A stretch of DNA of 47,114 nucleotides from Ramlibacter sp. 2FC (GTDB taxonomy: Bacteria; Pseudomonadota; Gammaproteobacteria; Burkholderiales; Burkholderiaceae_C): the NCBI GenBank assembly GCA_943372585.1, contig CALRZF020000001.1, forward strand, positions 1-47,114. The letters are read 5' to 3'. The position numbers were made by a program, and so were the translations under genes. This document shows positions 1 through 19,356 of this stretch, piece by piece (within the stretch, counting starts at the first letter, position 1; each line of letters starts with the position of its first letter). The notes under the pieces are model-generated. The model saw only the letters and a list, made by a program, of their open reading frames with translations. It was not told the origin of the DNA and made no database searches.

Positions 1-1211
1 TCGGAGAATTTCTTTTGTGCGTCTGGCGTGTCGGTCTTGTCAAGAAAGAGCTCGCCGATCACGACGCGTCGGGCTTTGAGCCAGTCGCATGATCCGTCGC
101 AGCTCAGGACGGTGTTTGGTGCCCGCCCCGCCTCAGTGAGATGTCGTTCAAGTGCTGCCCGAAAGTTGCTACCCAGGTCACTCGTTGCGCACCGGAACGC
201 CTTAGCGAAAATCGCAGACTCTTGGGCGCCCGTTGCAGCGACTGCATCCTTTGCACCGGGCGTCCAGCACTCCTTGCCCAGCGCCCGCATCGCTACCCGG
301 AAAGACCTTTCATTCGCTTGCGTGATCAAGGCGGCCTGTCGCTGCAGCGAATGGACGAGCAGTTTTCCGTAGTCGACCTGGTTAAGTTGGGGGCGCAGCT
401 TGATCGTCACCAATGCCCATGCGCTGGTGTCGTCGGTCGGCAGAACCGTCGTGTCGAACGCCAGCCGGTACAGTGTGTTGCCGGCGAGGTCGTGCGCGTC
501 GTCGCCGCGGGTGGCATTGATCTCGCTCTGAATGGTTTCATAGGCCGCCAGCCGGTCGTAGAAGTCCTGGATGGGTGTTTGGGAAAGCTGGGTAACGCGT
601 GGTGGTTCAGTCGGTGCAGTCAACGTGTCTTTGTTCGCTGCGAGCAACGTGCTTGCCGGAGCCGAGGCGGCCGGGGTTGGCGTCGTCGAAGTAGGAGTAC
701 TTGCTGACGCGGGTGTTGCCGTCAGACCCAGTTCCTTGAGCTGCTCTTCTGCCTGCTTGAAAGTGATCTCCTTCTTGTTGTACTTCGCGATAATCTCGTC
801 ACGCGCAGTCGCGCGCAGGGCGGATAAGGCCTTTTGATCGTCGGCTTGACTTTGCGCTCCCTGTGTGGCGCGGCCAATCTCGACGTTCTGTAGGCCGCGT
901 AGTGGGTCGAAGCTCAGATTCGCCTGTGCGCCGAGGAAAGACATGCTGGCCAAGGATGTGACGCCGCTCAAGCCCAGTTTGGCATCCCTGACCTCGTTGC
1001 GCCGCAGGGTGAGCCAGTGCTCCTTCTCGCGGCGGTCGTTTATCAATCGGTCGCTGGTCTCGACCCGGGGGCTGCCGACGTAGATGTCACCGAAGCCCGT
1101 GCCTGGTTCGTTGCGCGGGAAACTGGTGCTGCATCCCATGACCAGCGCGGCAGCGCTGGAAAGCGCGGAAACGCAGACAAAGCGGCGCTCTGCGATAAAT
1201 CGACCTGGCAT
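1..1211 (-). CDS. hypothetical lipoprotein, 3' end lies outside the window
   Basis: The minus-strand frame is open from ATG (1211-1209) to the window edge. It is absent from the ORF track only because there is no stop inside the window. AGGAGGAGGA Shine-Dalgarno (RC of 1217-1226) sits 5 nt upstream. The N-terminus MPGRFIAERRFVCVSALSSAAALVMG|CSTS is a signal peptide plus lipobox. A Pro/Thr/Ser/Ala linker (TATPASASTPTSTTPTPAASAPAS) follows later. No family recognised. Confidence 0.75.
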   Translation of the reverse strand, partial: MPGRFIAERRFVCVSALSSAAALVMGCSTSFPRNEPGTGFGDIYVGSPRVETSDRLINDRREKEHWLTLRRNEVRDAKLGLSGVTSLASMSFLGAQANLSFDPLRGLQNVEIGRATQGAQSQADDQKALSALRATARDEIIAKYNKKEITFKQAEEQLKELGLTATPASASTPTSTTPTPAASAPASTLLAANKDTLTAPTEPPRVTQLSQTPIQDFYDRLAAYETIQSEINATRGDDAHDLAGNTLYRLAFDTTVLPTDDTSAWALVTIKLRPQLNQVDYGKLLVHSLQRQAALITQANERSFRVAMRALGKECWTPGAKDAVAATGAQESAIFAKAFRCATSDLGSNFRAALERHLTEAGRAPNTVLSCDGSCDWLKARRVVIGELFLDKTDTPDAQKKFS

Positions 1212-1912
1212 AGGGATCCTCCTCCTTGATGACGCCCGTCCTGCGCATGCTTGGCACAGACATTGGCAGCTTGACTGTATCAATTTTCTTTAGTTTTTCA
1301 TCCCCAATGTTGAGGATGCGCGCGCGAGCCAAATTGGGCTTCCTGACCTTTCGCTGCTGCGAAGCCTCATAGGTAGAAACGCGTGGAGACAGCGTCATTC
1401 GCGCTTGAGTTTGTCTAGACATGCCGGCCGAACGTAGAAAAGAGCGGCCAGGGGGATGCGCAGCGGCGCTTCTTAGTGCTGTGCCGCGCAGATCCCGATC
1501 AGGAGCGAAACTTTGCGCAGGTGAAACTGCGTGTCGCAGTCATCGATCGCATTGCCTACCCGTCCGCGATAGAGTTTCACCAATAATTAACCTATGCCAA
1601 GCGCCGAACTGGTCGACTTCGATGACGAGGGCTTGTTGGAGCTGCAGGACGCGGCGAATCCCACCGTTACGCGCCGCAAGGGGCGGGCGACTGAGTACAG
1701 GTGATGTACCGGAAGTGCCGCATGCTTGTTCGGTTCGTCACACCAGTGCGCGCAGGGTGGTGGGAACGCGGATCAGGCGGCGCTGCCGCTGACCACTAGT
1801 AATTAGATGCCTCAGTACGCCAGTACTGGGACGCTATGCTTGTTAGGATGAGAGTTGATTTCAAGAGCAAAGAGCAACTCTGGTAAGCCAGTTCGCAAGT
1901 TGGCCACCCAAG

Positions 1913-2575
1913 TCATATGGACATTGCACGCAGATGCAGAAACGACGACTGCCACCCTTCGCTAAACACATGCAAAAACCACCAAACGACAAATAGCGTT
2001 GGCGCCAGCATGAAAGCGCCAGCAGAGGTGCAGTCTAGGCAGCCTTGGGCCAGGAGTTGAACCGCACCACCCAGTACTACGTAACAAGAAATCGCAGCCC
2101 AGACTTTTCGGACGATGCTGATTGCCTGGATGGGCAACTTGGGTGGCTCACGCAAATGAAGCCGCTGGTCTTTGCACTGCGCAGCAAGATTGCACACCAG
2201 GCCTCGAAAAGTCCACCAATTCAGGCCATGTGACTGCCGGATGATTCGCAGTCTCGCCCTCTCAGCGGGACTGAGATCTAGACGACCAAATTCCGCAGCA
2301 GTCAGATTTCGCTCTGCCTTGCCCAGTAGGTCCCAATATTCCGGAGTGCCTGGCGTCAATTGACGAGCACGTTCTTTCCAGAGCATATGGCGGCGGTAAA
2401 CAATCGGGTGGAAGAGCGCAAGTCGCCATCCAGATCTGAAACAGTTGACGTAGCCAGACAAGTTGAATTCACCGTAGTCGATGAAGAGTCGAACAGCCTC
2501 CGGCCCCCCATGTCTGGCCTCCTCGACCATCCTTCTTGCAAGGTCGGCCAGATCGTCTTGATCCGGCTTATCCAT
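1913..2575 (-). CDS. hypothetical membrane protein, translationally coupled to the upstream XRE gene
   Basis: ORF track gives 1913..2611. ATG at 2575 is preferred: RC upstream reads GGGAAAAGGAAACCC-ATG (SD-like), and it overlaps the XRE stop (2568-2570) by 8 nt. A soluble N-terminal part is followed by two hydrophobic helices (VWAAISCYVVLGGAVQLLAQG, AFMLAPTLFVVWWFLHVF). No family recognised. Confidence 0.6.
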   Translation of the reverse strand: MDKPDQDDLADLARRMVEEARHGGPEAVRLFIDYGEFNLSGYVNCFRSGWRLALFHPIVYRRHMLWKERARQLTPGTPEYWDLLGKAERNLTAAEFGRLDLSPAERARLRIIRQSHGLNWWTFRGLVCNLAAQCKDQRLHLREPPKLPIQAISIVRKVWAAISCYVVLGGAVQLLAQGCLDCTSAGAFMLAPTLFVVWWFLHVFSEGWQSSFLHLRAMSI

Positions 2576-3008
2576 GGGTTTCCTTTTCCCACATCGCGCT
2601 GACCAGGTCATTGCGGTCTTGACGTTGGGTTAGCGACTGCTTGCTTCGCTTGTGCTCTACATAAGCGGCATAAAGACGCTCAACCAGGTCACGTCGCATG
2701 CCTTCTGGGCAGTCCGGCACGCGTCGCGCACAGAACAAGCCGACATCCTCCACGGCTTGCCAGAGGAGAGGCCAATCGATTGCTCCTTGACAGTCCTCTG
2801 CGCGAACACCAAAGAGAACGAACGGTATGTCGACGCCGGCGCCCTCGACGCCGCGTAGATAGCCAAGAGTCGGATCGCTGGAGCCCGCCTCATATTTGTA
2901 CTGCGTTCGCCTGTCCACTTCACCAGCCTTGCCCAATTCCACTTGGGTCAGCCCAAGGCGCTGGCGTTCGGATTTGAGGCGGTCGCGTAGGAGGGCAATC
3001 AAATTCAT
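2568..3008 (-). CDS. XRE (Cro/C1) family HTH transcriptional regulator
   Basis: ORF track gives 2568..3083. Internal ATG 3008 is preferred because MNLIALLRDRLKSERQRLGLTQVELGKAGEVDRRTQYKYEAG is a canonical XRE HTH placed near the N-terminus. The longer form would also overlap the divergent gene starting at 3066. Confidence 0.7.
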   Translation of the reverse strand: MNLIALLRDRLKSERQRLGLTQVELGKAGEVDRRTQYKYEAGSSDPTLGYLRGVEGAGVDIPFVLFGVRAEDCQGAIDWPLLWQAVEDVGLFCARRVPDCPEGMRRDLVERLYAAYVEHKRSKQSLTQRQDRNDLVSAMWEKETHG

Positions 3009-3065
3009 AGAAATCAGAGTGTATTGTCCTTGTGAATCGACGTTAAGTGAACAATAATTCCCATC

Positions 3066-3365
3066 ATGGGCATTAATAGTCATTCAAAGACGTTTCAATC
3101 CGCGGAGATCAAGTCTGAATTTCAGCTCCAAGGGATGTCTATTGCGGCATGGGCGCGCGCGCGTGCCTTTGATCCACGCTTGGTCTATGCCGTATTGGGG
3201 GGGAAAAACAAGGCGTCGCGTGGCAAAAGCCATCTGATTGCGGTCGCCCTGGGTATCAAGCCGGGGCCGCAAATCACGGAAAGAACAATGCAGCTGGGCT
3301 TGGCCAGTGCACTGGGATCCCCGGATGGCTCAGTAGATGCGTCCCAGCTAGGGGAGTCCATATGA
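3066..3365 (+). CDS. small Ner/Nlp-like (HTH_35-like) DNA-binding protein
   Basis: 99 aa. AEIKSEFQLQGMSIAAWARARAFDPRLVYAVLGGKNKASRGKSHLIAVALGIKP follows the Ner/Nlp pattern (IK..l...G.SlaalAr..g......y.al......kg...IA.aLG..P). It is divergent from the XRE gene across a 57-bp AT-rich spacer. Confidence 0.55.
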   Translation: MGINSHSKTFQSAEIKSEFQLQGMSIAAWARARAFDPRLVYAVLGGKNKASRGKSHLIAVALGIKPGPQITERTMQLGLASALGSPDGSVDASQLGESI

Positions 3366-3433
3366 GCCCATAAAACTAAAACGCCCACCTATTTTCATAG
3401 GCAGGCGAGTCAGCCGTTGGCAGAACCAAACGT

Positions 3434-3498
3434 TGTGGTGACTGAAGTATCTGCTAGCGGTTGACCGGCTGTCAAGGCTTTGTCGTCCCTGAAAAACA
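3434..3498 (+). repeat. candidate right-end TnsB-binding repeats
   Basis: Direct repeats TGTGGTGACTGAAGTA (3434-3449) and TGTCGTCCCTGAAAAA (3481-3496), 11/16 identical, consensus TGTsGTnnCTGAA. TGTCAA also occurs at 3470 and 3527. They lie just upstream of tnsA, as expected for a Tn7-type right end. Confidence 0.35.
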
Positions 3499-3525
3499 AA
3501 TCTCAGGGCAGCTTGAAAGAAAACC

Positions 3526-4252
3526 GTGTCAAAAAACCTGCAGAACAGACTGCGCGAGCTCGCGCCGGGCGGCGCCGAGCCCAAACAACCCCGGAACCTG
3601 GTGACCCGAAGCGGCACCCGCGTCAGAGGAATCCACACTTCCCTGCGGTTCGGATCGCAAGTGCAATGGGAAACGCCTGAAGAACGAACTGCGATAGAGG
3701 TGCTGGATGCATCCCCATGGACGCTCGGCCTTGTGAGCCAGGCAACTCTGCTGACGATCCAGAGTTTTGAGGGCGAATTCAACTATGTGCCGGACATCGT
3801 GGCACTCCGGGAGCCTTCCGAGCTCCTCGTGATTGAGTGCAAGCCGCTGTCAGTGCTCCTGAGCGAGGAAATTCGCTCCAAACATCAGGCGATAGCACTG
3901 CAGATGAAGTCGCTAGGCGCCACCTTCATTGAACTCCCAAACGAGGTACAGCCCACTGCGGCTGTCCTGGAAAACGCGAGGCTCATGAAGGCAGCGCGCA
4001 GTTTGGTGGCCTATCCCAAAACAAAAAGAATGGAGGACGGGCGCTTGCTTGAGGAAGCGTCGGTAGCAACCTTTCGGCGACGTGTGCCGGCTCGTCGGAG
4101 CACGCCATGCCGTCGCAGCGTTAGTCATTCATGGCTGGCACTTCGATATGCATGCGCCTTTGCAACCCGAAACAGCCGTGTCACGGCAGTTCGAGGAGAG
4201 CTTTGATGGAGCGAATTACATTCACTCCGGGCTGTTCGGTTCGACTGTTTGA
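3526..4252 (+). pseudogene. tnsA: TnsA-type endonuclease gene with an apparent 1-nt frameshift near 4067-4078
   Basis: GTG start at 3526. Restriction-endonuclease-like motifs QWETPEE, YVPDIVAL, VIECKP. Frame 1 turns Arg-rich after ..EEASVATF and stops at 4206. Frame 2 (open from 4067) reads GDVCRLVGARHAVAALVIHGWHFDMHAPLQPETAV.., which is typical of a TnsA C-terminal domain, and stops at 4250-4252. Confidence 0.7.
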
Positions 4253-6296
4253 CCAAGTACATATCGTTTCAGGCGTTCGCGACAACAATTGGGTGGAGTT
4301 GATCACCGCCGACGGCAAGATCACCAAGACCCTGGATCTCACGACGCTCTTCGGACACTATCAAAGCGGAGGCCTGAAGCCAGGACCGAAACGCCGAGGC
4401 GCGAGAGTGCCCGAGCCGCATGCAGTTCTACGGCATATCCCGTACGCCGCTGCCGATCAAAGTGACGCAACAAAGCAGCAAGCGCAGGTGATGCGCGAGA
4501 TACTGCAGGCGGTGCAGGATGAGAACTGCCCGATTAAGGACGCCAGCAAATCGTTTCGCCGAACTGTTGCAGCCGTTGCGAAAAAGTTGAACGTCGAGCC
4601 CCCGAAAGCCCGCACCGTCCAGCGCTGGCTCGCGCGCCAGACCTATTCGGTTGGCGCTCGCCCGCTTGTTCCGAGGTTTGCCAATCGAGGTGGCAAAGGG
4701 CAATCGCGCTGCAGCCCGGAGGTTCAGGAGCTGATGGACGAGGTCATATTCAACGATTACATGACCACAGAGCGGCTTCCAGTTGCCCGATGCTACATGG
4801 ACCTATGCGCAAAGATTGCCGTTGCGAATCAGGCGCGCCCGTCAACCGACCTTCTGAAATCCCCATCGATCAATGCTTTCAGGAGGCGTATTCAAAGGCA
4901 GCCGGCCTTCGACATGTACGCAGCCCGCAACGGGCTGGGCGCCGCCAAGAAGAAGTTCCGGTCTACCGGTCGCAACGCCGAGAACTGGAAATTCATGGAG
5001 TGTTTTGAAGCTGACCACACCATCGTGGATGCTATGGTGGTCGACCTTGAAACTGGGCTGGTTCTCGGGCGGCCGCGCATTACCATCTTCATCGAATGGG
5101 TTACCAGGGCCTGTGTGGGGTTCACGATCGGATTTGAGGGCACTTCAACCCAGACAGTTCTGGAATGCTTGCATAACGCAGTCACACAGAAACTGGGCAT
5201 CAAGCAGCGATATCCATTGGTTCAGGGGAACTGGAACTGTTGGGGATTTCCTCGGTACCTCAAACTGGACAATGGCCCTGAATTCCACAGCGAAACCTTC
5301 GTCGGGTCCGCAAGTGAAATGGGCATTGATCTCATCTACTGCCCACGCAAAAAGGCATGGTTCAAAGGCCGGGTAGAAAGGGCCATCAAGCGGTTGAACG
5401 CTGAAATCATGGACGCCCTGCCCGGCGCGACACTGACCCAGCTCTACAACCGCGTTACCGAGCGCGACCCCTCCTCATGCGCAGTAATCGATCTGCAGTC
5501 TCTGCGGCACATCATGCACATCTGGGTGATCGACGTCTATCACCAAACCAAACACAAGGGTACAAACCGGCAACCAGGTCCGCATTGGGACGCGTGCTTT
5601 GATCTTGCTCAAGTCACCCTTCCTGCGGACCTTGGCTTGCTGGAGATTCTGTGCACTGAGCTGACGACACGTACGATCTTTCACTACGGCATCGAAATCT
5701 GTGGTGAACGGACGTTCAACAACTCTGAGCTGCAAGCTCTGCGTCGGCGTCAACAGTTTGGCGAATACGTGAAGGTCAAGGTGCGATACCGGCCTAGTAA
5801 GCTGGACAGGATCTGGGTATTCGACGCTGACAACCAAGAGTGGCTTGAAGTACTCAACTCCAACCCCGCCACGAATGATCTCGGGGAATTCCAGCTGAAG
5901 ATGCTGCATAAAATGCAGCGCGAGGCGATCTCTGCGGGGGAGCAGATCGACATCTTGACGGCGCGTCAACGCATGCGGAAGTTGGTTGAGTCGCTCAATA
6001 CTGCGAAGTCACAGCGTGCTCGCAAGAAAGCACTCAAGCTGCTGGGATTCACGAACAATCTCGACGCATTGAGCGCCACCGGAGCGGCCGATCCAGAGCC
6101 GCAATCGGATTTGGAAAATGAAGAAGTAGCTCAGAACAGCGAAACGTCAGCGCCACCGAACGGAGCCACAAAGCCCAAGCGTGGCCGTGCTGCAAAGACG
6201 CCTGACCTGCCTCCCGTCGAGCTGTATTCGGGCGTGATGCCGACCTTTCCGGCGTTTGATCCTCAAAGCCAGGCAGCCATGGGCGGTGCTGCATGA
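4206..6296 (+). CDS. tnsB: TnsB/TniA-family DDE transposase (rve integrase core, Mu-transposase-like C-terminus)
   Basis: ORF track gives 4131..6296. ATG 4206 (MERITFTPG..) is preferred because the upstream 25 codons lie in the tnsA tail. DDE triad: EADHTIVD, KLDNGPEFHS, and KGRVER about 35 aa after the second D. Confidence 0.9.
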   Translation: MERITFTPGCSVRLFDQVHIVSGVRDNNWVELITADGKITKTLDLTTLFGHYQSGGLKPGPKRRGARVPEPHAVLRHIPYAAADQSDATKQQAQVMREILQAVQDENCPIKDASKSFRRTVAAVAKKLNVEPPKARTVQRWLARQTYSVGARPLVPRFANRGGKGQSRCSPEVQELMDEVIFNDYMTTERLPVARCYMDLCAKIAVANQARPSTDLLKSPSINAFRRRIQRQPAFDMYAARNGLGAAKKKFRSTGRNAENWKFMECFEADHTIVDAMVVDLETGLVLGRPRITIFIEWVTRACVGFTIGFEGTSTQTVLECLHNAVTQKLGIKQRYPLVQGNWNCWGFPRYLKLDNGPEFHSETFVGSASEMGIDLIYCPRKKAWFKGRVERAIKRLNAEIMDALPGATLTQLYNRVTERDPSSCAVIDLQSLRHIMHIWVIDVYHQTKHKGTNRQPGPHWDACFDLAQVTLPADLGLLEILCTELTTRTIFHYGIEICGERTFNNSELQALRRRQQFGEYVKVKVRYRPSKLDRIWVFDADNQEWLEVLNSNPATNDLGEFQLKMLHKMQREAISAGEQIDILTARQRMRKLVESLNTAKSQRARKKALKLLGFTNNLDALSATGAADPEPQSDLENEEVAQNSETSAPPNGATKPKRGRAAKTPDLPPVELYSGVMPTFPAFDPQSQAAMGGAA

Positions 6297-7228
6297 TGCT
6301 GCGTCCCTACGAGCACATGGGTCCTCTGATAGCGGACCCGCATTTCAAAAGCGCCTGGCTGCGCGTGCAGCGGTGTCACAAGTCTTCAGCAAAGGGTTGT
6401 CGGCGGCAAAACCTCCGCCTCATTGGCGTATCCGGCGTGGGCAAGTCGCGACTGTTGATCGAGTACCGCGACGCACATCCCCCAATACACCACGAAGAGT
6501 ACACAGAGGTGCCGGTCATCTACGCGGAAGTACCCGCGCAACCTACTTCCAGACACCTAGCCCGGTGCCTGCTGACGGCCCTGGGCCGCCCCACGGAATC
6601 GGGAACAGCAGAAGAACTTTGGGCAACCTTCCAGCGCTTGTGTCGCGTCTGCAAGGTTCGTTTGATCTTGCTCGATGAGATACAGCACTTTGTTGACCGC
6701 GGAAGGGTCAGTACTTACGCTAACGACGCAGACATTCTCAAGCAGAACCTCTCAACGCTCGGCATCCCAACGGTGTTTGCCGGAGCCCCCCGATCGCGAT
6801 TGCTTTTCGAAGTAAACAACCAGTTGCGTGGCCGGTACAAGCCCATCCATGCGATGCGTCCATTTGCCCTTTCCAACGTAGATGAGATCGCACGTTTCAC
6901 GACCAGTGTCGCCACCGCAGCATCCAGCTTGCCGGACAAGGTTCTTCGCTTTCTGATCAGCCCGGCCATGATTCCGCGCTTGTTCTACGCAACTGACGGA
7001 ATCTTCCGAAATTTGCTGGACTTTCTGGATGGCGTCCGCGCAGTGCTGGAGGATAAGACGACATGTAGCCTTTCGCTGCTGTCTCTCGCCTTCCATGACA
7101 CGGTGTGGGTACCGGTCTCAAAAAAGGATGATCCTTTCAACGAGAGTTTTGTGCCCCGGCGGCTGATAAATCCAGGCGAGCCTTTCATGCCAAGCCCGAT
7201 GGATGGTGACAATCATGCGTACTACTGA
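6293..7228 (+). CDS. tnsC: TnsC/TniB-family AAA+ ATPase (short, 311 aa)
   Basis: Walker A GVSGVGKSRL and Walker B RLILLDEIQHF. ATGA start/stop overlap with tnsB at 6293-6296. Confidence 0.85.
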   Translation: MMLRPYEHMGPLIADPHFKSAWLRVQRCHKSSAKGCRRQNLRLIGVSGVGKSRLLIEYRDAHPPIHHEEYTEVPVIYAEVPAQPTSRHLARCLLTALGRPTESGTAEELWATFQRLCRVCKVRLILLDEIQHFVDRGRVSTYANDADILKQNLSTLGIPTVFAGAPRSRLLFEVNNQLRGRYKPIHAMRPFALSNVDEIARFTTSVATAASSLPDKVLRFLISPAMIPRLFYATDGIFRNLLDFLDGVRAVLEDKTTCSLSLLSLAFHDTVWVPVSKKDDPFNESFVPRRLINPGEPFMPSPMDGDNHAYY

Positions 7229-8117
7229 ACCAACGTCAGGTCCCGCCTTAGGACCTTGGGAATCAGCCGTGGCCCATATGGTGCGATCAGCGACGCTGAC
7301 CGGCTCAAGCTATGAACAATTAGCTGCACAGATCTCGTTGGGCTGTCGGGTAGATCAGTACATAGCAATCGGCGTTCGCGCTGAGAGGGCGCGCTACGCT
7401 GAATATCCGCAAGAAATTCACGCAGCAATGTCTGATGAAGCACCGAAGCCGCGAAGGCTCGTGTGCTCGCATTGCATACGTGAAAGACTGCCCGACAGCA
7501 TCTACGAGCGGCATCCGTACAACAGCTACTGCTTGACGCACGGGACACCGGCCTTGGCGAGGTGCCCTCGCTGCAGGCAGTTGCTGCGCTACGGTGCCAG
7601 CGACTATGACAATTGCGTATGCGGTCTTCGGTTCGACGAAGCAGACTCTAGTGGAGAAGCAGGTAGCGCGCCCACTCTGTACATGGCGGCAGCCGCAAAC
7701 GTCCCTATTGTCGAAGCGCCGAAATCGCTGGACCCCGGGGCCGACTGTCTGGACGCCATTCATGAACGGCTATCGTCTACCTGGCGGTTCATCTGTGCAG
7801 ACACCCCTGAGCAGGCAGATCACGACCCTGCTGATCTGCTGTCAAATCCGGCGAGGCTCTGGTCACACGCCTTGGACATTGTGTGTGCTGGCGGCCTGAC
7901 TTTTGAGCAGTGGGTGGTCGCAAAAATCCAGCGCTGGCGCGACTACACCCAACCGTCTTTGTATTTGGACTACTGCGTAGGAGATGACTTCGTCCGTACC
8001 AATCACTTTGCCTGGAGTTACCTGCGACGCCTTGTCGATCGGGAACTGAAAACCTGTTTTCGCACCCGCAGGCAGCCTGGACTGTTTGACGCTGAAAGCG
8101 AAGGCGCATGTCAGTGA
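7203..8117 (+). CDS. tniQ: TniQ/TnsD-family target-selector protein, copy 1
   Basis: N-terminal TniQ-like LGPWESAVAHMVRSATLTG, then a zinc-ribbon region CSHCIRE..SYCLTHG..CPRCRQ..C.C. Alternative ATG at 7215. Overlaps the tnsC stop at 7228. Confidence 0.7.
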   Translation: MVTIMRTTEPTSGPALGPWESAVAHMVRSATLTGSSYEQLAAQISLGCRVDQYIAIGVRAERARYAEYPQEIHAAMSDEAPKPRRLVCSHCIRERLPDSIYERHPYNSYCLTHGTPALARCPRCRQLLRYGASDYDNCVCGLRFDEADSSGEAGSAPTLYMAAAANVPIVEAPKSLDPGADCLDAIHERLSSTWRFICADTPEQADHDPADLLSNPARLWSHALDIVCAGGLTFEQWVVAKIQRWRDYTQPSLYLDYCVGDDFVRTNHFAWSYLRRLVDRELKTCFRTRRQPGLFDAESEGACQ

Positions 8118-9013
8118 AGATCCATTCCGGGCAGACGCTTCTTCTGGTAAGACCGCCCCCATGCGTGGATGAGAGCTGTTCTTCTTGGGCGCACCGGGTC
8201 GCGCTTGCGAATGGATACAGCTGCGCTCTGCAAATGCTGCGTGTAACTGCTGGACCCGTCTCGGCCTTCGTTGATCTGGATTTTGACCCTCCAGGTGAAG
8301 TACACCAGGTGCTTGGGCGCCTGACCGGTTATGCCCAGGAAGTGATTGCCGCGCTTTGCGCGCCCGCGACACCGACGGACTCATGGCACGGCGTCCCCCT
8401 GCGCCATGCAGTCACGCATCGCACTTTTCGCGGCCGGCGCAACAGTGTCGCTACCACGCCCGTCTGTGTTCAATGTGTGCGCCAGCGCGTTCCTGCTCGT
8501 TGGGACTTGTCTTGGAGGTACTCTTGGACAACGGGCTGCAATGTGCATCGCACTCCTTTACAGGACACCTGCAGCCACTGCCAGGAGCCGATCGAAGCCG
8601 ATCTATCCAGAACTGCTTCGATCAGGAATTGTCTGCGGTGCGGCAAAAAGTTTTCGCTTCGGAAAATACCTGCGCGCGATGAACCAATAGCGACATTGGA
8701 TGTTGAACGTCAGTTGAACACTGGGTGTCTTGCGGGTTCCGCTGATTCCAAGGCAGTGCTGAGTGAAATTTTCGAGTGGGGACGATGGGAGTACTTTGCG
8801 CTGGCTAAAGCAGAGAGCGGGTCGCTTGAAGCTGTGAAGGCTTTTGAGTTTCTGTCGTCACACCCGCCCATCCGATATTCCGTGGGCTCAATGCCTGTCA
8901 ACGTGCGACGCGTCTTCTGGGATCACGTTGGGAAGGTACTTGCCCGGCAGACGGTTGAGCCGTCATCGCTCAGCCAGGTACACAACCTCAAGCCGTTTAA
9001 GGAAATTCAATGA
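8108..9013 (+). CDS. tniQ: TniQ/TnsD-family target-selector protein, copy 2
   Basis: LLLVRPPPCVDESCSSWAHRVALANGYS (classic TniQ N-terminus). CVQCVRQRVPARWDLSWRYSWTTGCNVHRTPLQDTCSHCQEPI and CLRCGKKF. Overlaps the stop of copy 1 (8115-8117); alternative GTG at 8114. Confidence 0.8.
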   Translation: MSVKIHSGQTLLLVRPPPCVDESCSSWAHRVALANGYSCALQMLRVTAGPVSAFVDLDFDPPGEVHQVLGRLTGYAQEVIAALCAPATPTDSWHGVPLRHAVTHRTFRGRRNSVATTPVCVQCVRQRVPARWDLSWRYSWTTGCNVHRTPLQDTCSHCQEPIEADLSRTASIRNCLRCGKKFSLRKIPARDEPIATLDVERQLNTGCLAGSADSKAVLSEIFEWGRWEYFALAKAESGSLEAVKAFEFLSSHPPIRYSVGSMPVNVRRVFWDHVGKVLARQTVEPSSLSQVHNLKPFKEIQ

Positions 9014-9939
9014 ATGCGGATGAGCTGCTCGCTGACTGGTTCGCGCTGAGTCGGAAGAGGCCATTCAGTGAGTCGACGATTCAGATCTATGCCCGCATCT
9101 GGGCTATGTGGTGTGAATGGTTGGGAAAGGAGAGCAAGAGTCGTGCTGAAGGATCGCTTTGCTTTTTGACCGCAACCTCTGAAGATGTTTCCAAATTTCT
9201 CCAGTCACCATACCCTGGTTATTGGGTGAGACATCAGCAGCCGTCTAGCGATAGGCCCAAAAATAGATATCTTCAACTTCTCGGTCGAATCTACGACCAC
9301 GCGCTGAGATGCGGCGTCATGGATTGCAATCCGACGCGCGAGCTTGACAGTTCTTTGGCGGGTGATCGGGGCCCGATACCCCAGACTCTGACCCCAGCTG
9401 AATGGGCTGCGATCTATTCCGGAATGCCAATGGGTTGCAAACGGAGTGACTTACGCGATCGCGCTGTCATGTTGTTGCTGATGGATGCCGGCCTGTCTAC
9501 AGGGGAGATGGCTGCGCTGGAACGCTCCGATGTTGAGCGGGATATTTTGACGCGGTCCCAATTGCAAGTTGTGATCCGAGGATCAAGGGATGCGCAAAGG
9601 CGTACATTGAAGTTGAACCTGAGAACGAGCCTGACGCTCGAGAGGTGGCTGCAAGAGCGAGAATCAGTCATGCAATCGCCGCAGGTCAAAGGCGATCCCG
9701 TTTTTCTTACGGATACGCGCTCGCGGTTTACGCGGCGTGTTCTGGACTATTTGGCGAACCGGATGATTGGTGACGCCATTGGTGCGGCCGGGCCTCGTCG
9801 CCTTGCAAATGGCGGAGTCTCCATTGTGCGTAACACTCGCATCCTCATGTGGGCGCAAAGTGGCATGTCTCAGAAGCAGGTGATGCAAATGGCAGGCTTC
9901 ATCAACGAGTGGAGTTTCCGTGGCTTGTGGCCTAGTTGA
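9010..9939 (+). CDS. tyrosine-recombinase-fold protein lacking catalytic His/His/Tyr (TnsF-like candidate)
   Basis: N-terminal SAM-like core-binding region (STIQIYARIWAMWCEWL). Box I is retained (LRDRAVMLLLMDAGLSTGEMAALERSDV). The HxLRH position reads SIVRN. The LGH....TT..Y position reads AGFINEWSFRGLWPS-stop, with no Tyr. ATGA overlap with tniQ-2 at 9010-9013. Confidence 0.65.
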   Translation: MNADELLADWFALSRKRPFSESTIQIYARIWAMWCEWLGKESKSRAEGSLCFLTATSEDVSKFLQSPYPGYWVRHQQPSSDRPKNRYLQLLGRIYDHALRCGVMDCNPTRELDSSLAGDRGPIPQTLTPAEWAAIYSGMPMGCKRSDLRDRAVMLLLMDAGLSTGEMAALERSDVERDILTRSQLQVVIRGSRDAQRRTLKLNLRTSLTLERWLQERESVMQSPQVKGDPVFLTDTRSRFTRRVLDYLANRMIGDAIGAAGPRRLANGGVSIVRNTRILMWAQSGMSQKQVMQMAGFINEWSFRGLWPS

Positions 9940-10165
9940 CCCGGCTTTCCAGGCACCCCGCCTGAAATTGACCGCCGCACTCGCCAAACAAGTACGGATC
10001 GGTCGCGGGGCGATGACTAAATCAGCCAGTGAAACCAGCAGCACCCAAAAAGCAAAAAGCCTCCGTGAGGAGGTCTCTGCTCTTTGCGTCGGGGCGCCCT
10101 TGGAGAGTAATGCCGATCAACGCGCCGTCGAATCTTACTTGAATCCAACCGACAAGTGAAGCTAA

Positions 10166-10279
10166 TGTTTCAGTACGGCAAGGCCCTGACGCTTTTGGTA
10201 GGACTAGGTCGGTTCAGCGGAGCAACCGTACTACTGAGTAGGGGTAAGCTTGTACTGCTGCGGCACCACCGCCACCACA
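10166..10279 (-). repeat. candidate left-end repeats (inverted relative to the right end)
   Basis: RC of 10190-10166, GTCAGGGCCTTGCCGTACTGAAACA, aligns with 3471-3498, GTCAAGGCTTTGTCGTCCCTGAAAAACA (about 20 of 26 positions with small gaps). RC of 10279-10271 is TGTGGTGGC. A weaker GCTGAAC copy lies at RC of about 10211-10225. Confidence 0.3.
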
Positions 10280-10280
10280 G

Positions 10281-11213
10281 CTAGTCCGGTAGGTGCCCAA
10301 ACGCTTGGTCCACAAAGCTGTCGCTCGGGTTCTTCCAAGTCTCACGCAGCAGGTAGCTGACGGGCACGCCCAGGTTGATGCCGTAGCCTGGCAAGGGCGA
10401 GTTGAGCCACTGCTCGTGCCACCGAGCCAGCACACCGCCCTGGATCAGCGCGCGCATCTCGCGCGACAGCACAGCGCGCAGCCGCGGCTCAGTAGTGCGA
10501 AAAGCCAGCGCCTTGGCGCGCATGGAATAGGCCTTGGGAATCACCGTGTAGCGCTCCGCGCCGGCCGACAGCCGGATCGCAAACAGGCTCGCGTCATCGG
10601 CAAACAACGCCTGCGCCTCGCCCTTTCGCAGCACTTCCATCGCAGCCTTCGGGTTGCGGGCCACCACGACGCCTGCGTTCACGCCCGTCTGCGCAAGCAC
10701 GTAGCGCAGCATTGCCTCGTTGCCCGACTGCGAGGTGGTCACCACCTTCTGCCCATGGAACCGTCCTAGGTCGGTGCCCTCTACGGCACCCGGCACCAGC
10801 AGCCGCGTCGCCGCGACGAACAGGGGGACCGTCAGCCCCACCTCCTTGAGCGACTGGTTGGACACGGTGGAGTCCGCGCAGTCGATGTCGATCAGGCCAT
10901 CCGCCAGCGCTGCATTGCGCTCGTTGGGCCCCACGGGCACCCACACAACCTGCAGCGCAAGCTTGAGTTCACGGCTGAGCGCGGCGGCAAAGTGCTTGCA
11001 GACCTCCACTGCCAGGCCGGCCGGCTCACCCGCTTTGTCAATGAACGAAAACGGCACGCTGGCCGTGCGGTGGCCCAGGTGGATCTTGCGGCTGACCTGC
11101 AACTTGTCCAGCGTGTCGGCGGCCACGGCCGTGGCCGCGAACAACGCCGCTACACCGGCAGCGCGTGCGGCACGTCGGATGATTTGTCGGACGTCAAACA
11201 TTCCAGCACCCAT
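10281..11213 (-). CDS. amino-acid ABC transporter substrate-binding protein (SBP family 3, GltI-like)
   Basis: Signal peptide RRAARAAGVAALFAATAVAA. Body typical of polar amino-acid binding proteins (IHLGHRTASVPFSF.., IDIDCADSTV..). Alternative ATG at 11201. The stop (10281-10283) directly abuts the accessory segment. Confidence 0.85.
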   Translation of the reverse strand: MGAGMFDVRQIIRRAARAAGVAALFAATAVAADTLDKLQVSRKIHLGHRTASVPFSFIDKAGEPAGLAVEVCKHFAAALSRELKLALQVVWVPVGPNERNAALADGLIDIDCADSTVSNQSLKEVGLTVPLFVAATRLLVPGAVEGTDLGRFHGQKVVTTSQSGNEAMLRYVLAQTGVNAGVVVARNPKAAMEVLRKGEAQALFADDASLFAIRLSAGAERYTVIPKAYSMRAKALAFRTTEPRLRAVLSREMRALIQGGVLARWHEQWLNSPLPGYGINLGVPVSYLLRETWKNPSDSFVDQAFGHLPD

Positions 11214-16733: not shown

Positions 16734-18419
16734 TTATGCAGTTTTCGAAGAAGTCGGTTCAGGCATGCTAAGGCTCACAGCGTTGGCCCGCAACCGGTTG
16801 GGTGCCAGTGCTCCGGCCGAGTCCAGGATCGGGTAGGCGATGGAGCAGATGTGTGAATTGATCCGCTTCAGGTCGCTGATCAGGTCAATGTGCAGCGAGC
16901 TGGTCTCAATGCTCTGAACCGTGTTGTCTGACAGTCGCCCCAGGTGGGTCGTGGCGTATTCACGTTCCAGGTCCCGAAAACGTGCCTTTTCCTCCAGCAG
17001 CTTCTGCGCGTCGCGCACCGTGCCATTCAGGAACACGCTCATGCCCAGGCGCAGGTTGTCCACCAGGCGCGCATGCAGCTCGCAGATTTCGGCCATGCCG
17101 GCTTCCGAGAAGCTGCGGCTTTTCTTGATCTTCTTGTCCTCGATGTCGATCAGCACACGCTCGATGATGTCGCCGATCTGCTCCATGTTGATGGTGAAGC
17201 TGATGATGTCCGTCCAGCGCCGGCTTTCCTCTTCGCCCAGCGCTTCGCGCGAAATCTTGGTCAGGTAGTACTTGATGGCCGAATACAGCTCGTCCACCGT
17301 GTCGTCCATCTTGCGCAGTTCTTCGGCCAGCTGCAGGTCGTTGTCCTTGATGACCTTGAGCATGCCCAGCATCATGGTCTCTACGATGTCGGCTTGGTGC
17401 AGCGCCTCGCGTGCGGCGCACGATATGGCCAGCGACGGCGTACTCAGCGCAGAGGGGTCCAGATGATGCGGCCGCCCGGAAGCCATGGATTTTTCGGGCT
17501 TGGGCAGCCACTTTTTTACCCAGCCGGCCACCACCTGCGTGACGCCGATGAACACCACGCCCACCAGCAGGTTGAAGGTCAGGTGGAACATCACCACCAC
17601 CGTGGCCGGCTCGCCCAGATACGGGCGCACATGGCGAACCCACAGACCCAGCAGCGGCGCTGCAATCAGCACGCCCAGCGCCTTGAACACGAAATTGCCC
17701 ATGGGCACCTGGCGGACCTCGACGGTGGACTTGGCCGTCGTCAGCACGGCCAGCAGGCCGCTGCCCAGGTTGGCGCCCAGCACCAGGCCCAGCGCCACGT
17801 CCAGTGGGATCACGCCCGAGGCCGCCAGCGTGGCCGTGAGCAGCACGATAGCCAGGCTGGAATATGACACCACGGCCAGCACGGCGCCCATGGTGATTTC
17901 CAGCAGCAGGTCGCTGGCCAGCGAGGCCAGCAGCGCCTTGACGGCGGGCGCCTGCGTCAGCACCTCGGTCGATGCGGTGACCAGGCGCAGCGCCAGCAGC
18001 ATCAGGCCCAGGCCGATCAGGATGCGGCCAATGCGGCCCACGTTGGTGCTTTGGCGCGAAATGAACAGGACTACGCCCGCAAAGATGAACAGCGGCGACA
18101 GCCACGAAAGGTCGAACGAGAACACCACGGCCATCAGGCTGGTGCCCACGTCAGCGCCCAGCATCACGGCCAGCGCCAGGGGCAGCGTGACAAGGCCCTG
18201 GCCGACAAAAGACGAGACGATGAGTGCGGTAGCCGTGCTGGACTGCACCAGCGCGGTCACGCCCACGCCCGAAAGCGCGGCCGTGTAGCGGTTGCTGATG
18301 CTGTGCGCCAGAACGTTGCGCAGGTTCGCGCCGAACACGCGCAGGATGCCGGTTCGGACGAGGTGGGTGCCCCACACGAGCAGCGCGATCGCTGCCAAAA
18401 GGTTCAACAGATGCTTCAT
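16734..18419 (-). CDS. Na/Pi cotransporter family protein with C-terminal PhoU-like domain (NptA/YjbB-like)
   Basis: ATG 18419 (MKHLLNLLAAIALLVWGTHLVRTGILRVFG) is preferred over the TTG at 18458. N-terminal polytopic membrane half, C-terminal helical PhoU-like half (..DDTVDELYSAIKYYL..). Confidence 0.85.
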   Translation of the reverse strand: MKHLLNLLAAIALLVWGTHLVRTGILRVFGANLRNVLAHSISNRYTAALSGVGVTALVQSSTATALIVSSFVGQGLVTLPLALAVMLGADVGTSLMAVVFSFDLSWLSPLFIFAGVVLFISRQSTNVGRIGRILIGLGLMLLALRLVTASTEVLTQAPAVKALLASLASDLLLEITMGAVLAVVSYSSLAIVLLTATLAASGVIPLDVALGLVLGANLGSGLLAVLTTAKSTVEVRQVPMGNFVFKALGVLIAAPLLGLWVRHVRPYLGEPATVVVMFHLTFNLLVGVVFIGVTQVVAGWVKKWLPKPEKSMASGRPHHLDPSALSTPSLAISCAAREALHQADIVETMMLGMLKVIKDNDLQLAEELRKMDDTVDELYSAIKYYLTKISREALGEEESRRWTDIISFTINMEQIGDIIERVLIDIEDKKIKKSRSFSEAGMAEICELHARLVDNLRLGMSVFLNGTVRDAQKLLEEKARFRDLEREYATTHLGRLSDNTVQSIETSSLHIDLISDLKRINSHICSIAYPILDSAGALAPNRLRANAVSLSMPEPTSSKTA

Positions 18420-18447: not shown

Positions 18448-19356
18448 TCAAATTTCAAACAACGGCTCGGGCACGGCCAACGGCTCGGCCAGTGTGGTAC
18501 CGAACAGGCTGCCCGACAGGGGCATGCTGACCAGCTCAGCGCTGCCCATGTCCTGTCTGGCGGTCGCCACCAGCAACCTCCGCCCGTCCGCGCCCCCCAG
18601 CGCAGGGCAGGTGCTGTGTGGCGCCGGCATGTGTAGTGTCAGCAAGAGGCGACCGTCCGACGCGTAGCGGCTGACCTGGCCTGCACCCCACTGCGCATTC
18701 CATAGGCAGTCCTGCGCATCGACTACCGAGCCATCGGGCCAGGCCAGAGCGTCCGCCATGGCCGCGAACGGACGCGGCTGCCCAACCCACGCCGTTTCGG
18801 CGTCGTACTCGCATTGCTGTATCAGCTGGGTCACCGTGTCGCAGAAGTACATCCGCCGCCCATTCAGGCTGAAGCAGATGCTGTTGGCAATGGTCACCGA
18901 CGGCAAATTGAGTCGCCTCAGGCCATGGCGCATCGAGTACTGATAGAAGTTTCCCGTTGGCTGGCGGTCGCGGCCCTCATTCAAGGTACCAAACACCAGT
19001 TGGCCACTGCGGTCGCATCGGCCGTCGTTGACGCGGGTGGACAACCGCTCCGACTCCACCTCGGTCAGCATCTGAAAGTCCAAGTGCGCCGTGTCATCGC
19101 CCATGTGGGTCAAGGTACCCAAGCAAAGGGACTTGGCAAAGCCCAGTAGCAGTTGCCCATTTCGCGTGTGCGCGAAGCAGCCCAACCGCTCCGGAAGTGC
19201 GATAGACATATGCGCTCCATCCCACGGCGACCAAGCATGAAGCTGCCGATCCTGTATGTCAGTCCACCACCAGCGACCGGTCGGCGCGTGCCACTGCAGA
19301 CATTCACCAAGTACTGCACCATGATGAAACGCTAACGTCAGATCGGGGCCTCTCAT
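18448..19356 (-). CDS. SMP-30/gluconolactonase/LRE-family lactonase
   Basis: ATG 19356 (ATGA overlap with the dgoA stop). LGECLQWHAPTGRWWWTDIQDRQLHAW.. and the beta-propeller repeat pattern. The context with dgoDKA suggests a galactonolactonase. Confidence 0.85.
   Translation of the reverse strand: MRGPDLTLAFHHGAVLGECLQWHAPTGRWWWTDIQDRQLHAWSPWDGAHMSIALPERLGCFAHTRNGQLLLGFAKSLCLGTLTHMGDDTAHLDFQMLTEVESERLSTRVNDGRCDRSGQLVFGTLNEGRDRQPTGNFYQYSMRHGLRRLNLPSVTIANSICFSLNGRRMYFCDTVTQLIQQCEYDAETAWVGQPRPFAAMADALAWPDGSVVDAQDCLWNAQWGAGQVSRYASDGRLLLTLHMPAPHSTCPALGGADGRRLLVATARQDMGSAELVSMPLSGSLFGTTLAEPLAVPEPLFEI

Follow-up and report, generated by a model that had tools for sequence, protein, structure and literature searches.

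Tn7 and Tn6677, the latter providing the core of type I-F3 CRISPR-associated transposons, combine a TnsA plus TnsB transposase with the AAA+ ATPase TnsC and with target selectors of the TniQ family. Tandem tniQ/tnsD genes are known from 1,048 loci (Faure et al. 2023, PMC10293859), and the same work documents an inactivated tyrosine-recombinase domain, TnsF, as a selector, which in Tn6022 binds the attachment site and docks on TniQ (PMC10293859). According to Benler et al. 2021 (PMC8649781), one or more cargo genes are present in 96% of Tn7-like elements. Here we describe a Tn7-type locus on a 47,114-nucleotide contig of Ramlibacter sp. 2FC (CALRZF020000001.1, positions 1 to 47,114; below, the window). 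It seems probable that 1-10279 is an arm of some larger transposon of the Tn7 family, belonging to a clade that has rarely been sampled, and that the contig ends inside the element; since the window is the entire contig, the other element end would lie off it. TnsB relatives are rare, amounting to 18 clusters at an identity of at least 43%.

The locus resembles Tn7 and Tn6677 in its TnsB transposase with a TnsA-like partner, its AAA+ TnsC and its TniQ selectors. Further likenesses to Tn7 are the 5'-TGT ends and subterminal repeat arrays of the relatives and, in L004, a 5-bp flanking repeat, a defence-rich cargo such as Benler et al. describe (PMC8649781), and probable insertion directly behind a host gene's stop codon. 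In contrast to the usual Tn7 arrangement, the tns operon reads toward the nearest end and not inward, and cargo lies upstream, beyond a control module (seen in the related loci L004, L080, L081, L076 and L089); moreover, TnsC is a short TniB-type protein of 311 amino acids (aa), TnsA is too divergent for Pfam thresholds, and CRISPR-Cas genes, TnsE and a classical attachment gene are lacking. Only one end of the element is on the contig, with a TGTGGTGG terminus and two YYGTACTRCTG repeats, whereas the relatives show an inverted pair. Tn5053/Tn402 is a poor match, because it carries TniA-TniB-TniQ plus TniR and no TnsA, whereas the window operon has a TnsA-like gene, lacks a resolvase and ends in an inactive tyrosine recombinase. 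As in Tn6022, a tniQ gene is followed, through an overlapping stop and start, by a tyrosine-recombinase derivative that has lost catalysis. However, TnsF is described as a protein of ~498 aa with N-terminal zinc fingers, tandem CB domains (CB1-CB2) and a partial CAT domain, whereas the product here is Xer-like, has 309 aa and lacks zinc fingers; comM is not the target, and the recombinase gene occurs in the window/L012 lineage only.

An earlier note on this DNA, made from the sequence, had held that its target, and the sharing of work among three selector candidates, could not be explained from known architectures, a claim that does not stand, because tandem tniQ genes and a dead recombinase selector are both published themes (PMC10293859). 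The features that appear undescribed in the literature searched are instead the Mu-like control module, the conserved candidate antisense RNA and the combination of an operon reading toward the end with upstream cargo. The main value of the finding is corrective: the element is not a minimal, cargo-free relative of Tn7, and its selectors follow published themes. The clade also shows that the usual rule that places an end beside tnsA and the cargo downstream can mis-delimit elements.

The tns operon and its inherited upstream region

Six co-directional open reading frames (ORFs) on the plus strand, at 3526-4206, 4131-6296, 6293-7228, 7203-8117, 8108-9013 and 9010-9939 (ORF scan), form a chain in which ATGA joins stop to start at 6293-6296 and 9010-9013, and in which neighbouring frames overlap over 7203-7228 and over 8108-8117, just as had been claimed. 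The second of these frames is open from 4131, and alignment places the conserved methionine of TnsB at residue 26 of that ORF, so that the stop codon of tnsA and the conserved start codon of tnsB (4206) share the sequence TGATG (4204-4208). The tnsB product (4206-6296) is a DDE transposase with Pfam rve and Mu-transpos_C domains, and its nearest solved relatives are TnsB of Tn6677 (E = 2e-46), of a type V-K system (2e-19) and of Tn7 (2e-13). The tnsC gene (6293-7228) encodes the short AAA+ ATPase, with matches to PF05621 (TniB, 7e-25) and AAA_22 (1e-15). The first TniQ-family zinc-ribbon gene, tniQ-1 (7203-8117), keeps the conserved Cys/His positions; its product has no Pfam match alone, but a family profile matches the TniQ chains 7u5d_I (9.4e-9) and 30ga_I (8e-5). 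The product of tniQ-2 (8108-9013) matches PF06527 (1e-11) and the TniQ.1 chain 30ga_I (2e-5). As the two products also match each other over the zinc ribbon (BLASTP, 4e-6), 7203-8117 and 8108-9013 are tandem TniQ paralogues. Among relatives, the tniQ-1 product varies from 282 to 593 aa, and the gene is absent from L080.

The last gene (9010-9939) encodes the 309-aa Xer-like tyrosine-recombinase homologue, which matches TIGR02225 at 4e-14, below the family cut-off. Its catalytic Arg-I is replaced by Ser (aligned to XerD Arg148), and there is no Tyr among the C-terminal 45 residues; the XerD reference used for this tyrosine check agrees with a separate XerD alignment. Judged by these residues, the product is a catalytically dead recombinase, and its gene is lineage-specific, tblastn among the fetched loci finding it in L012 only. 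The first gene (3526-4206) encodes the TnsA-like endonuclease of the PD-(D/E)xK type. It matches NF033179 at 2e-8, below that family's cut-off, and weak PF08722 matches were obtained for five of nine relatives (best E 0.0044), while the residues E49, D90, E104 and K106 (E...D...E-x-K) and the motifs WETPEE, YxPD and ECKP are invariant across the nine. No PDB sequence match was found for TnsA, and its single-sequence structure model, with a predicted local distance difference test (pLDDT) value of 30, was unusable for fold search. The family assignments of the earlier note were thus borne out by profile searches for TnsB, TnsC, both TniQ proteins and the degenerate recombinase, and for TnsA by weak matches only. 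Given the TnsB, TniB and TniQ matches, the chain can be taken as a genuine Tn7-type transposition operon that encodes several candidate selectors, as had been proposed.

Composition marks a single boundary of this region: the G+C fraction is ~0.55-0.58 in the gene chain and rises to 0.65-0.70 at ~10280, and since 1-3434 is as low as the gene chain, no second break appears on the left. The loci L076 and L077 align with the window without a break from 1862 to 5227 at 90-91% DNA identity (blastn), and L089 aligns at 89% over 1910-3463 (blastn). A Ner-like gene precedes tnsA in every relative with upstream sequence except L002, which has only a helix-turn-helix (HTH) gene in that place. Where the relatives' DNA extends further, a divergent XRE repressor gene and then the gene of a 220-aa protein stand ahead of the Ner-like gene, and this control module adjoins tnsA in L001, L003 and L004, in the L015/L016/L019/L020 clade and in L076-L089. 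Because the relatives are colinear and the module always co-occurs with the tns genes, DNA previously taken as left flank and DNA taken as element are one inherited unit. The Ner-like gene that the earlier note saw on the left is indeed present, yet it travels with the tns genes and is no flank.

Variation begins beyond the 220-aa gene. Relatives lose similarity to the window at 1862 (L076-L079) or ~1910 (L089, L004, L001, L081), and these blastn breakpoints define 1862-1912 (minus strand) as the conserved 3' tail of the 220-aa gene and the cargo junction. Past this point lie DNA methylases in L076-L079; GmrSD, AAA_13 and CBASS in L080; PRTase-CE with an ORC-CDC6-like gene in L081-L083 and L004; restriction-modification in L001; two genes without assigned function and IS66 in L085; and a SNF2-like helicase in L089. 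In the window, a gene without assigned function runs off the contig there, a stop-free minus-strand frame of low G+C at 3-1211 (frame 3-1289; six-frame scan) with possible starts at 1211, 1139 or 944 and a plausible protein. The ORFs in 1-1900 have no Pfam or PADLOC match, and the 3-1211 frame is most likely cargo. Cargo beyond the 220-aa gene therefore differs by lineage and consists mostly of defence genes, and the earlier statement that there is no room for cargo applies downstream of the operon but not on the upstream side, where relatives carry it.

The true ends of such elements could be followed in L004, L081 and L082. Past the operon, L004 has a 234-aa gene and an XRE gene, beyond which host NiFe-hydrogenase genes begin. 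A 95-bp segment on the tniQ side, before the hydrogenase genes (17323-17417), has counterparts of 83% identity at the cargo side of L081 and L082, with inside and outside oriented alike, and thus behaves as a terminal inverted repeat; L001 carries the same sequence at 18927-18967. Outside this segment are repeats of the form TTT[GC]GA[TC]GGAA(A)TT, and 5'-TGTCGC... is the terminal sequence of L081, of L082 and of the left side of L004, the ends as a whole being ~150 bp long. The outer flanks of L004 and L081 are homologous and lie upstream of a malic-enzyme-like gene (read from the sequence), and L004 374-17458 is bracketed by TGCTA on both sides, which is suggestive of a 5-bp target duplication. 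As the inverted ends lie outside the cargo, elements of the L004 type are ~17 kb long and carry their cargo upstream of the control module.

By this comparison, the window element would run from an off-contig terminus and a variable cargo bay (here 1-1862), through the control module (minus-strand genes for the 220-aa membrane protein and the XRE repressor, facing away from the plus-strand Ner-like gene) and the gene of a small antisense RNA, to the translationally coupled tnsA, tnsB, tnsC, tniQ-1, tniQ-2 and dead recombinase genes and a ~150-bp end terminating at 10279. Going by the known roles of these families, TnsA and TnsB would excise the element, and the TniB-type TnsC would connect the transposase with whichever site the TniQ proteins mark, while the dead recombinase may add DNA recognition, as TnsF does in Tn6022. 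The repressor/Ner switch would set expression, with the tns operon read from the Ner promoter and the antisense RNA damping or processing the read-through.

Several observations weigh against an arm of a larger element. The second end is unseen in the window, size and cargo are inferred from relatives, and the full-length case is drawn from a lineage with TnsB at only 53% identity; the two ends of L004, moreover, resemble each other only weakly. About 900 bp of the proposed cargo bay (950-1862) has no convincing ORF, the listed ORFs giving Arg/Ser-rich low-complexity strings. The divergence of L012 at ~10222 casts doubt on the last 57 nucleotides (nt) of the far end. The TnsA assignment is weak, as it comes from low-scoring profile matches and the motif, with the fold confirmed neither by the structure model nor by the PDB search; finally, the antisense RNA and the switch are predicted from layout and sequence.

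Alternative extents of the element

A compact element that includes the control module, spanning ~1727-10279 (8.5 kb) without cargo and with host DNA left of ~1727, is an unlikely alternative. The reverse-complemented far end is colinear with 1781-1841 (GCTGCCGCTGACCACTAGT versus GCTCCGCTGAACCGACCTAGT, then TCAG, then GCC(A)GTACTG), which speaks for this shorter extent over a longer arm, and a TGT at 1727 stands 54 nt before the 1781 block, against 56 nt at the far end; the ORF-poor stretch from ~950 to 1862 and the ~150-bp ends of relatives would also fit. However, the alignment of 1781-1841 scores 21.5, below the shuffled-control mean of 23.6, and the terminal 8 nt at 1727 match at only 4 of 8 positions. 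The window's far end is flanked by GCTAG, and 1-1900 contains no second copy that could complete a 5-bp duplication. All other lineages examined carry genes at the cargo junction, and the G+C fraction of 1-1860 (0.59-0.61) is not above that of the element. An outer end directly left of the 220-aa gene was also considered and rejected, as there is no similarity at that place between L001 and L004, despite 87% identity of their cores.

The earlier note had proposed a compact, cargo-less element at 3434-10279. Such an element, inserted ~25 bp from a conserved hairpin downstream of a Ner-like gene that would be its attachment site, we consider very improbable. TGTGGTG at both proposed ends resembles the Tn7 terminus TGTGGGCG, and the succession of a hairpin, a ~25-nt variable spacer and a conserved block mimics the geometry of a TnsD site and its insertion point. 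The block of high identity between L001 and L004 starts just before the hairpin, and in L015 the tnsA-proximal TTTTCTGTGTTGTTAG has a 16/18 inverted copy 1.3 kb past tniQ, though such a repeat is expected ~0.6 times by chance. Against these points stands the colinearity of relatives across 3434. The 65-bp block starting with TGTGGTG at 3434 is nearly identical between lineages with TnsB ~53% identical, but no inverted copy of it, or of 3366-3526, was found at any far end of the window or its relatives (blastn-short, ungapped scans, nhmmer); these searches gave only the short pair 3471-3486/10175-10190. What 3434 and 10279 share is the 7 nt TGTGGTG only, and the pair shows no target-site duplication (AACGT versus GCTAG).

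The hairpin itself is a predicted minus-strand terminator, with its conserved promoter inside the supposed element, so that one gene would straddle the "end", 3434 falling where transcription of the conserved candidate antisense RNA of ~65 nt is predicted to begin. The hairpin is ~100% conserved while the Ner genes fall to 48% identity, which is unlike a target gene, and one would have to regard the control module as a 1.5-kb orphan that invariably accompanies the element. Block and terminus do not co-vary, as L081 has TGTGGTGAC in the block but TGTCGC termini; co-variation of the block's first 9 nt with the termini was tried as an explanation and fits the window and L004, but fails in L081. 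An alternative end, TGACCGGC at 3462 paired with ...GGTTCA at 10216 (flanks GCGGT/GCGGA), was dropped because relatives are colinear across the region, and k-mer enrichment for end repeats was uninformative. We thus do not regard 3434 as a boundary, and the compact, cargo-less extent falls with it, because in relatives the same genes sit in a larger element. The L015 repeat (9177-9192 and 16899-16914, from the tnsA-proximal spacer to past tniQ) is accompanied by a second shared motif, CCACTGT...TAGAGG, and could be either a chance match or an inner end.

A Mu-like transposable prophage remnant, in which repressor, Ner, transposase and ATPase would be a phage early region, can be set aside as highly improbable, because the BcepMu gp16-type Ner-like gene, the phrog_310 transposase match (2e-45), the Mu-transpos_C domain and a gene order like the c/ner/A/B of the Mu early region are outweighed by nearest solved relatives that are Tn7-family TnsB proteins, with no MuA chain among the matches listed, by the TnsA-like nuclease and two tniQ genes, by the lack of phage structural genes in the window arm and the relatives' loci, and by a viral-contig search without a match.

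Probable control module and candidate antisense RNA gene

Under the probable reading of 1-10279 as one arm of a larger transposon, the genes between cargo and tnsA would form its regulatory part. The 220-aa protein gene (1913-2575, minus strand; ORF open to 2611) is placed by alignment and is co-oriented with the repressor gene. Its product is all-helical with two C-terminal hydrophobic helices in a low-confidence structure model (pLDDT 60, no fold search), and the family comprises only eight protein clusters, every examined context of which adjoins this tns module. The XRE/HTH_3 repressor-like gene (2568-3008, minus strand; ORF open to 3083) matches Pfam HTH_3 and PHROG repressor families; in relatives it encodes 146 aa, and it diverges from the Ner-like gene and is kept beside the tns genes. 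The Ner-like gene (3066-3365, plus strand) encodes a DNA-binding protein of the BcepMu gp16 family (TIGR04111, 5e-23; phrog_925, 5e-21).

A sigma-70-like promoter is predicted ahead of the Ner-like gene at 3030-3058, and the promoter/terminator scan found no plus-strand promoter or terminator between this gene and tnsA; the tns operon is therefore probably read through from the Ner promoter. From this layout, the repressor and Ner-like proteins probably constitute a switch over tns expression in the style of the Mu early region. The likeness to Mu and BcepMu is that the transposase operon begins with a Ner-like gene, from which a repressor gene points away. Unlike these phages, the locus has Tn7-type machinery and no phage genes, its repressor would be co-transcribed with a two-transmembrane-helix protein, and the candidate antisense RNA gene lies between the Ner-like gene and the transposase genes.

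The antisense RNA gene is a candidate of ~65 nt at 3372-3439 on the minus strand, called by the promoter/terminator scan and a covariance model. Its predicted promoter has a -35 element TTGACA (3475-3470), an 18-nt spacer and a -10 element GATACT (3451-3446), and the TGTGGTG read earlier as an element end coincides with the predicted transcription start. About 30 nt past this start comes the terminator, with an invariant 12-bp stem (3407-3382), a GNRA loop and a U-tail to 3372; its G.U pairs and its GAAA, GCAA or GUAA loops, which vary by lineage, are valid on the minus strand only. The fold z-score of the RNA is -3.7. Its 5' body varies even between elements that are 90% identical, yet by eye a small 5'-body hairpin is kept by a compensatory T-A to C-G change between the window and L076.

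L015 and L019, with TnsB proteins of ~48% identity and hosts that differ in G+C content, share this arrangement of promoter and terminator. With the covariance model, exactly one copy was detected in each of 14 loci, the window among them, always antisense and directly ahead of tnsA; L020, outside the training set, scores 44 bits, and L016 gives a weak match at the expected place. An Rfam search of 1-11000 gave no match. From the layout, the conserved promoter and terminator would probably specify a cis-antisense RNA complementary to the read-through junction between the Ner-like gene and tnsA, which damps or processes the read-through. The predicted RNA resembles IS10 RNA-OUT and lambda OOP in being a short, constitutive-looking transcript with its own promoter and intrinsic terminator that would pair over its full length with the mRNA directly ahead of the controlled gene. 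The RNA here differs from both in having no sequence or Rfam relation to them and in overlapping an intergenic read-through and not a ribosome-binding site or coding end. Two Burkholderia loci with TnsB 25% identical to that of the window also give weak antisense matches just upstream of tnsA (L010:9223-9270 and L011:9225-9296, E ~0.5-0.7), which hints at a similar terminator or RNA in more distant relatives.

Taken together, it is possible, if somewhat doubtful, that the clade took over a phage-type decision circuit, with bistable transposase expression, a lineage-specific "immunity" and cargo loaded upstream of the control region. In such a circuit, made up of the repressor, the Ner-like protein, the membrane protein and a dedicated cis-antisense RNA, the 5' body of that RNA would diverge fast while its promoter and terminator stay fixed. 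To our knowledge, on/off control of Tn7-family transposition in native hosts is largely undescribed. If the switch is real, a whole tnsABC-tniQ operon under a Mu-like repressor/Ner pair, together with a conserved antisense RNA where the two meet, would be a testable regulatory model; one of the few described controls in the family is the MerR-type CvkR repressor of type V-K systems (PMC9938897). Among plasmids, all TnsB matches were distant (below 30% identity), and the control module was not found.

The probable end at 10279 and the host gene beside it

Motifs, a core match and host homology delimit a probable transposon end on the tniQ/recombinase side at 10130-10279. From inside to outside, it contains an inner site at 10160-10193 that is an inverted copy of 3468-3497 at 20 of 29 positions (by eye), a core at 10196-10216 that matches the L004 end core at 15 of 19 positions and that bears a palindrome in relatives, and the two direct YYGTACTRCTG repeats at 10228-10238 and 10251-10261. 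The sequence finishes with ...CACCACA at 10279, the reverse complement being 5'-TGTGGTGG. The distance from TCAG (10213-10216) to the ACA terminus is 62 nt, compared with 63 nt to ...GCGACA in L082, and homology to host relatives restarts at 10285. The right boundary given in the earlier note is thus probably correct, being colinear with the relatives' ends and one base away from the stop codon of the binding-protein gene; the G+C break at ~10280 is confirmed too. We judge 10279 likely to be the element terminus.

The main reservation comes from the locus L012, 88% identical, which follows the window only to ~10222: its positions 5295-5400 show no similarity to 10222-10279 in the last ~60-75 nt. 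This mismatch possibly reflects a decayed end in one of the two, or an assembly fork at an inverted repeat, as in L081 versus L082. A hairpin with a T-run at 10060-10073 (minus strand; terminator scan), conserved in L012, is a predicted terminator and would be positioned to stop read-through from the host gene into the element.

Two further sequence observations concern the ends. A near-palindrome, CCTACGTGGG, lies ~70-80 nt from the terminus in the end segments of L004 (17378-17394), L081 (15556-15572) and L001 (18936-18952), and has the look of a binding site for some dimeric protein distinct from the transposase. An identical 14-mer, GGCCTTGCCGTACT, is found in L001 at 6758-6771 (plus strand, left of the control module) and, inverted, within the window's far end at 10172-10185; this may be a remnant or one more site bound by the transposase. 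Between L001 (16492-16629) and L004 (16468-16974), elements that are 87% identical, homology breaks inside an XRE gene that is truncated in L001, which points to a second variable region downstream of the tniQ genes.

Next to the terminus is a host gene for an amino-acid ABC-transporter substrate-binding protein (10281-11201, minus strand; SBP_bac_3, PRK10797), as the earlier note had recognised. The gene is intact, its product (P0041) has 306 aa and orthologues up to 84% identical, and its stop codon at 10281-10283 lies one base from the element terminus, in the same position as the stop in L072. Exact-protein look-ups of this protein and of the window TnsB returned no record. A tRNA search found none, and with the negative Rfam search this agrees with the earlier statement that no classical attachment gene (glmS, comM, tRNA, SRP RNA) is recognisable on either flank. 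In an empty-site search through binding-protein orthologues, homology ended at the stop codon in every relative and no empty site was obtained. At the orthologous loci, L074 has a transketolase gene after the binding-protein gene and L072 has a different island. The latter (L072:2296-6670), beside a binding protein that is 84% identical, is led by a Phage_integrase-family gene directly after the stop codon, and integration into the 3' end of the binding-protein gene may be a general tendency, making it a hot spot.

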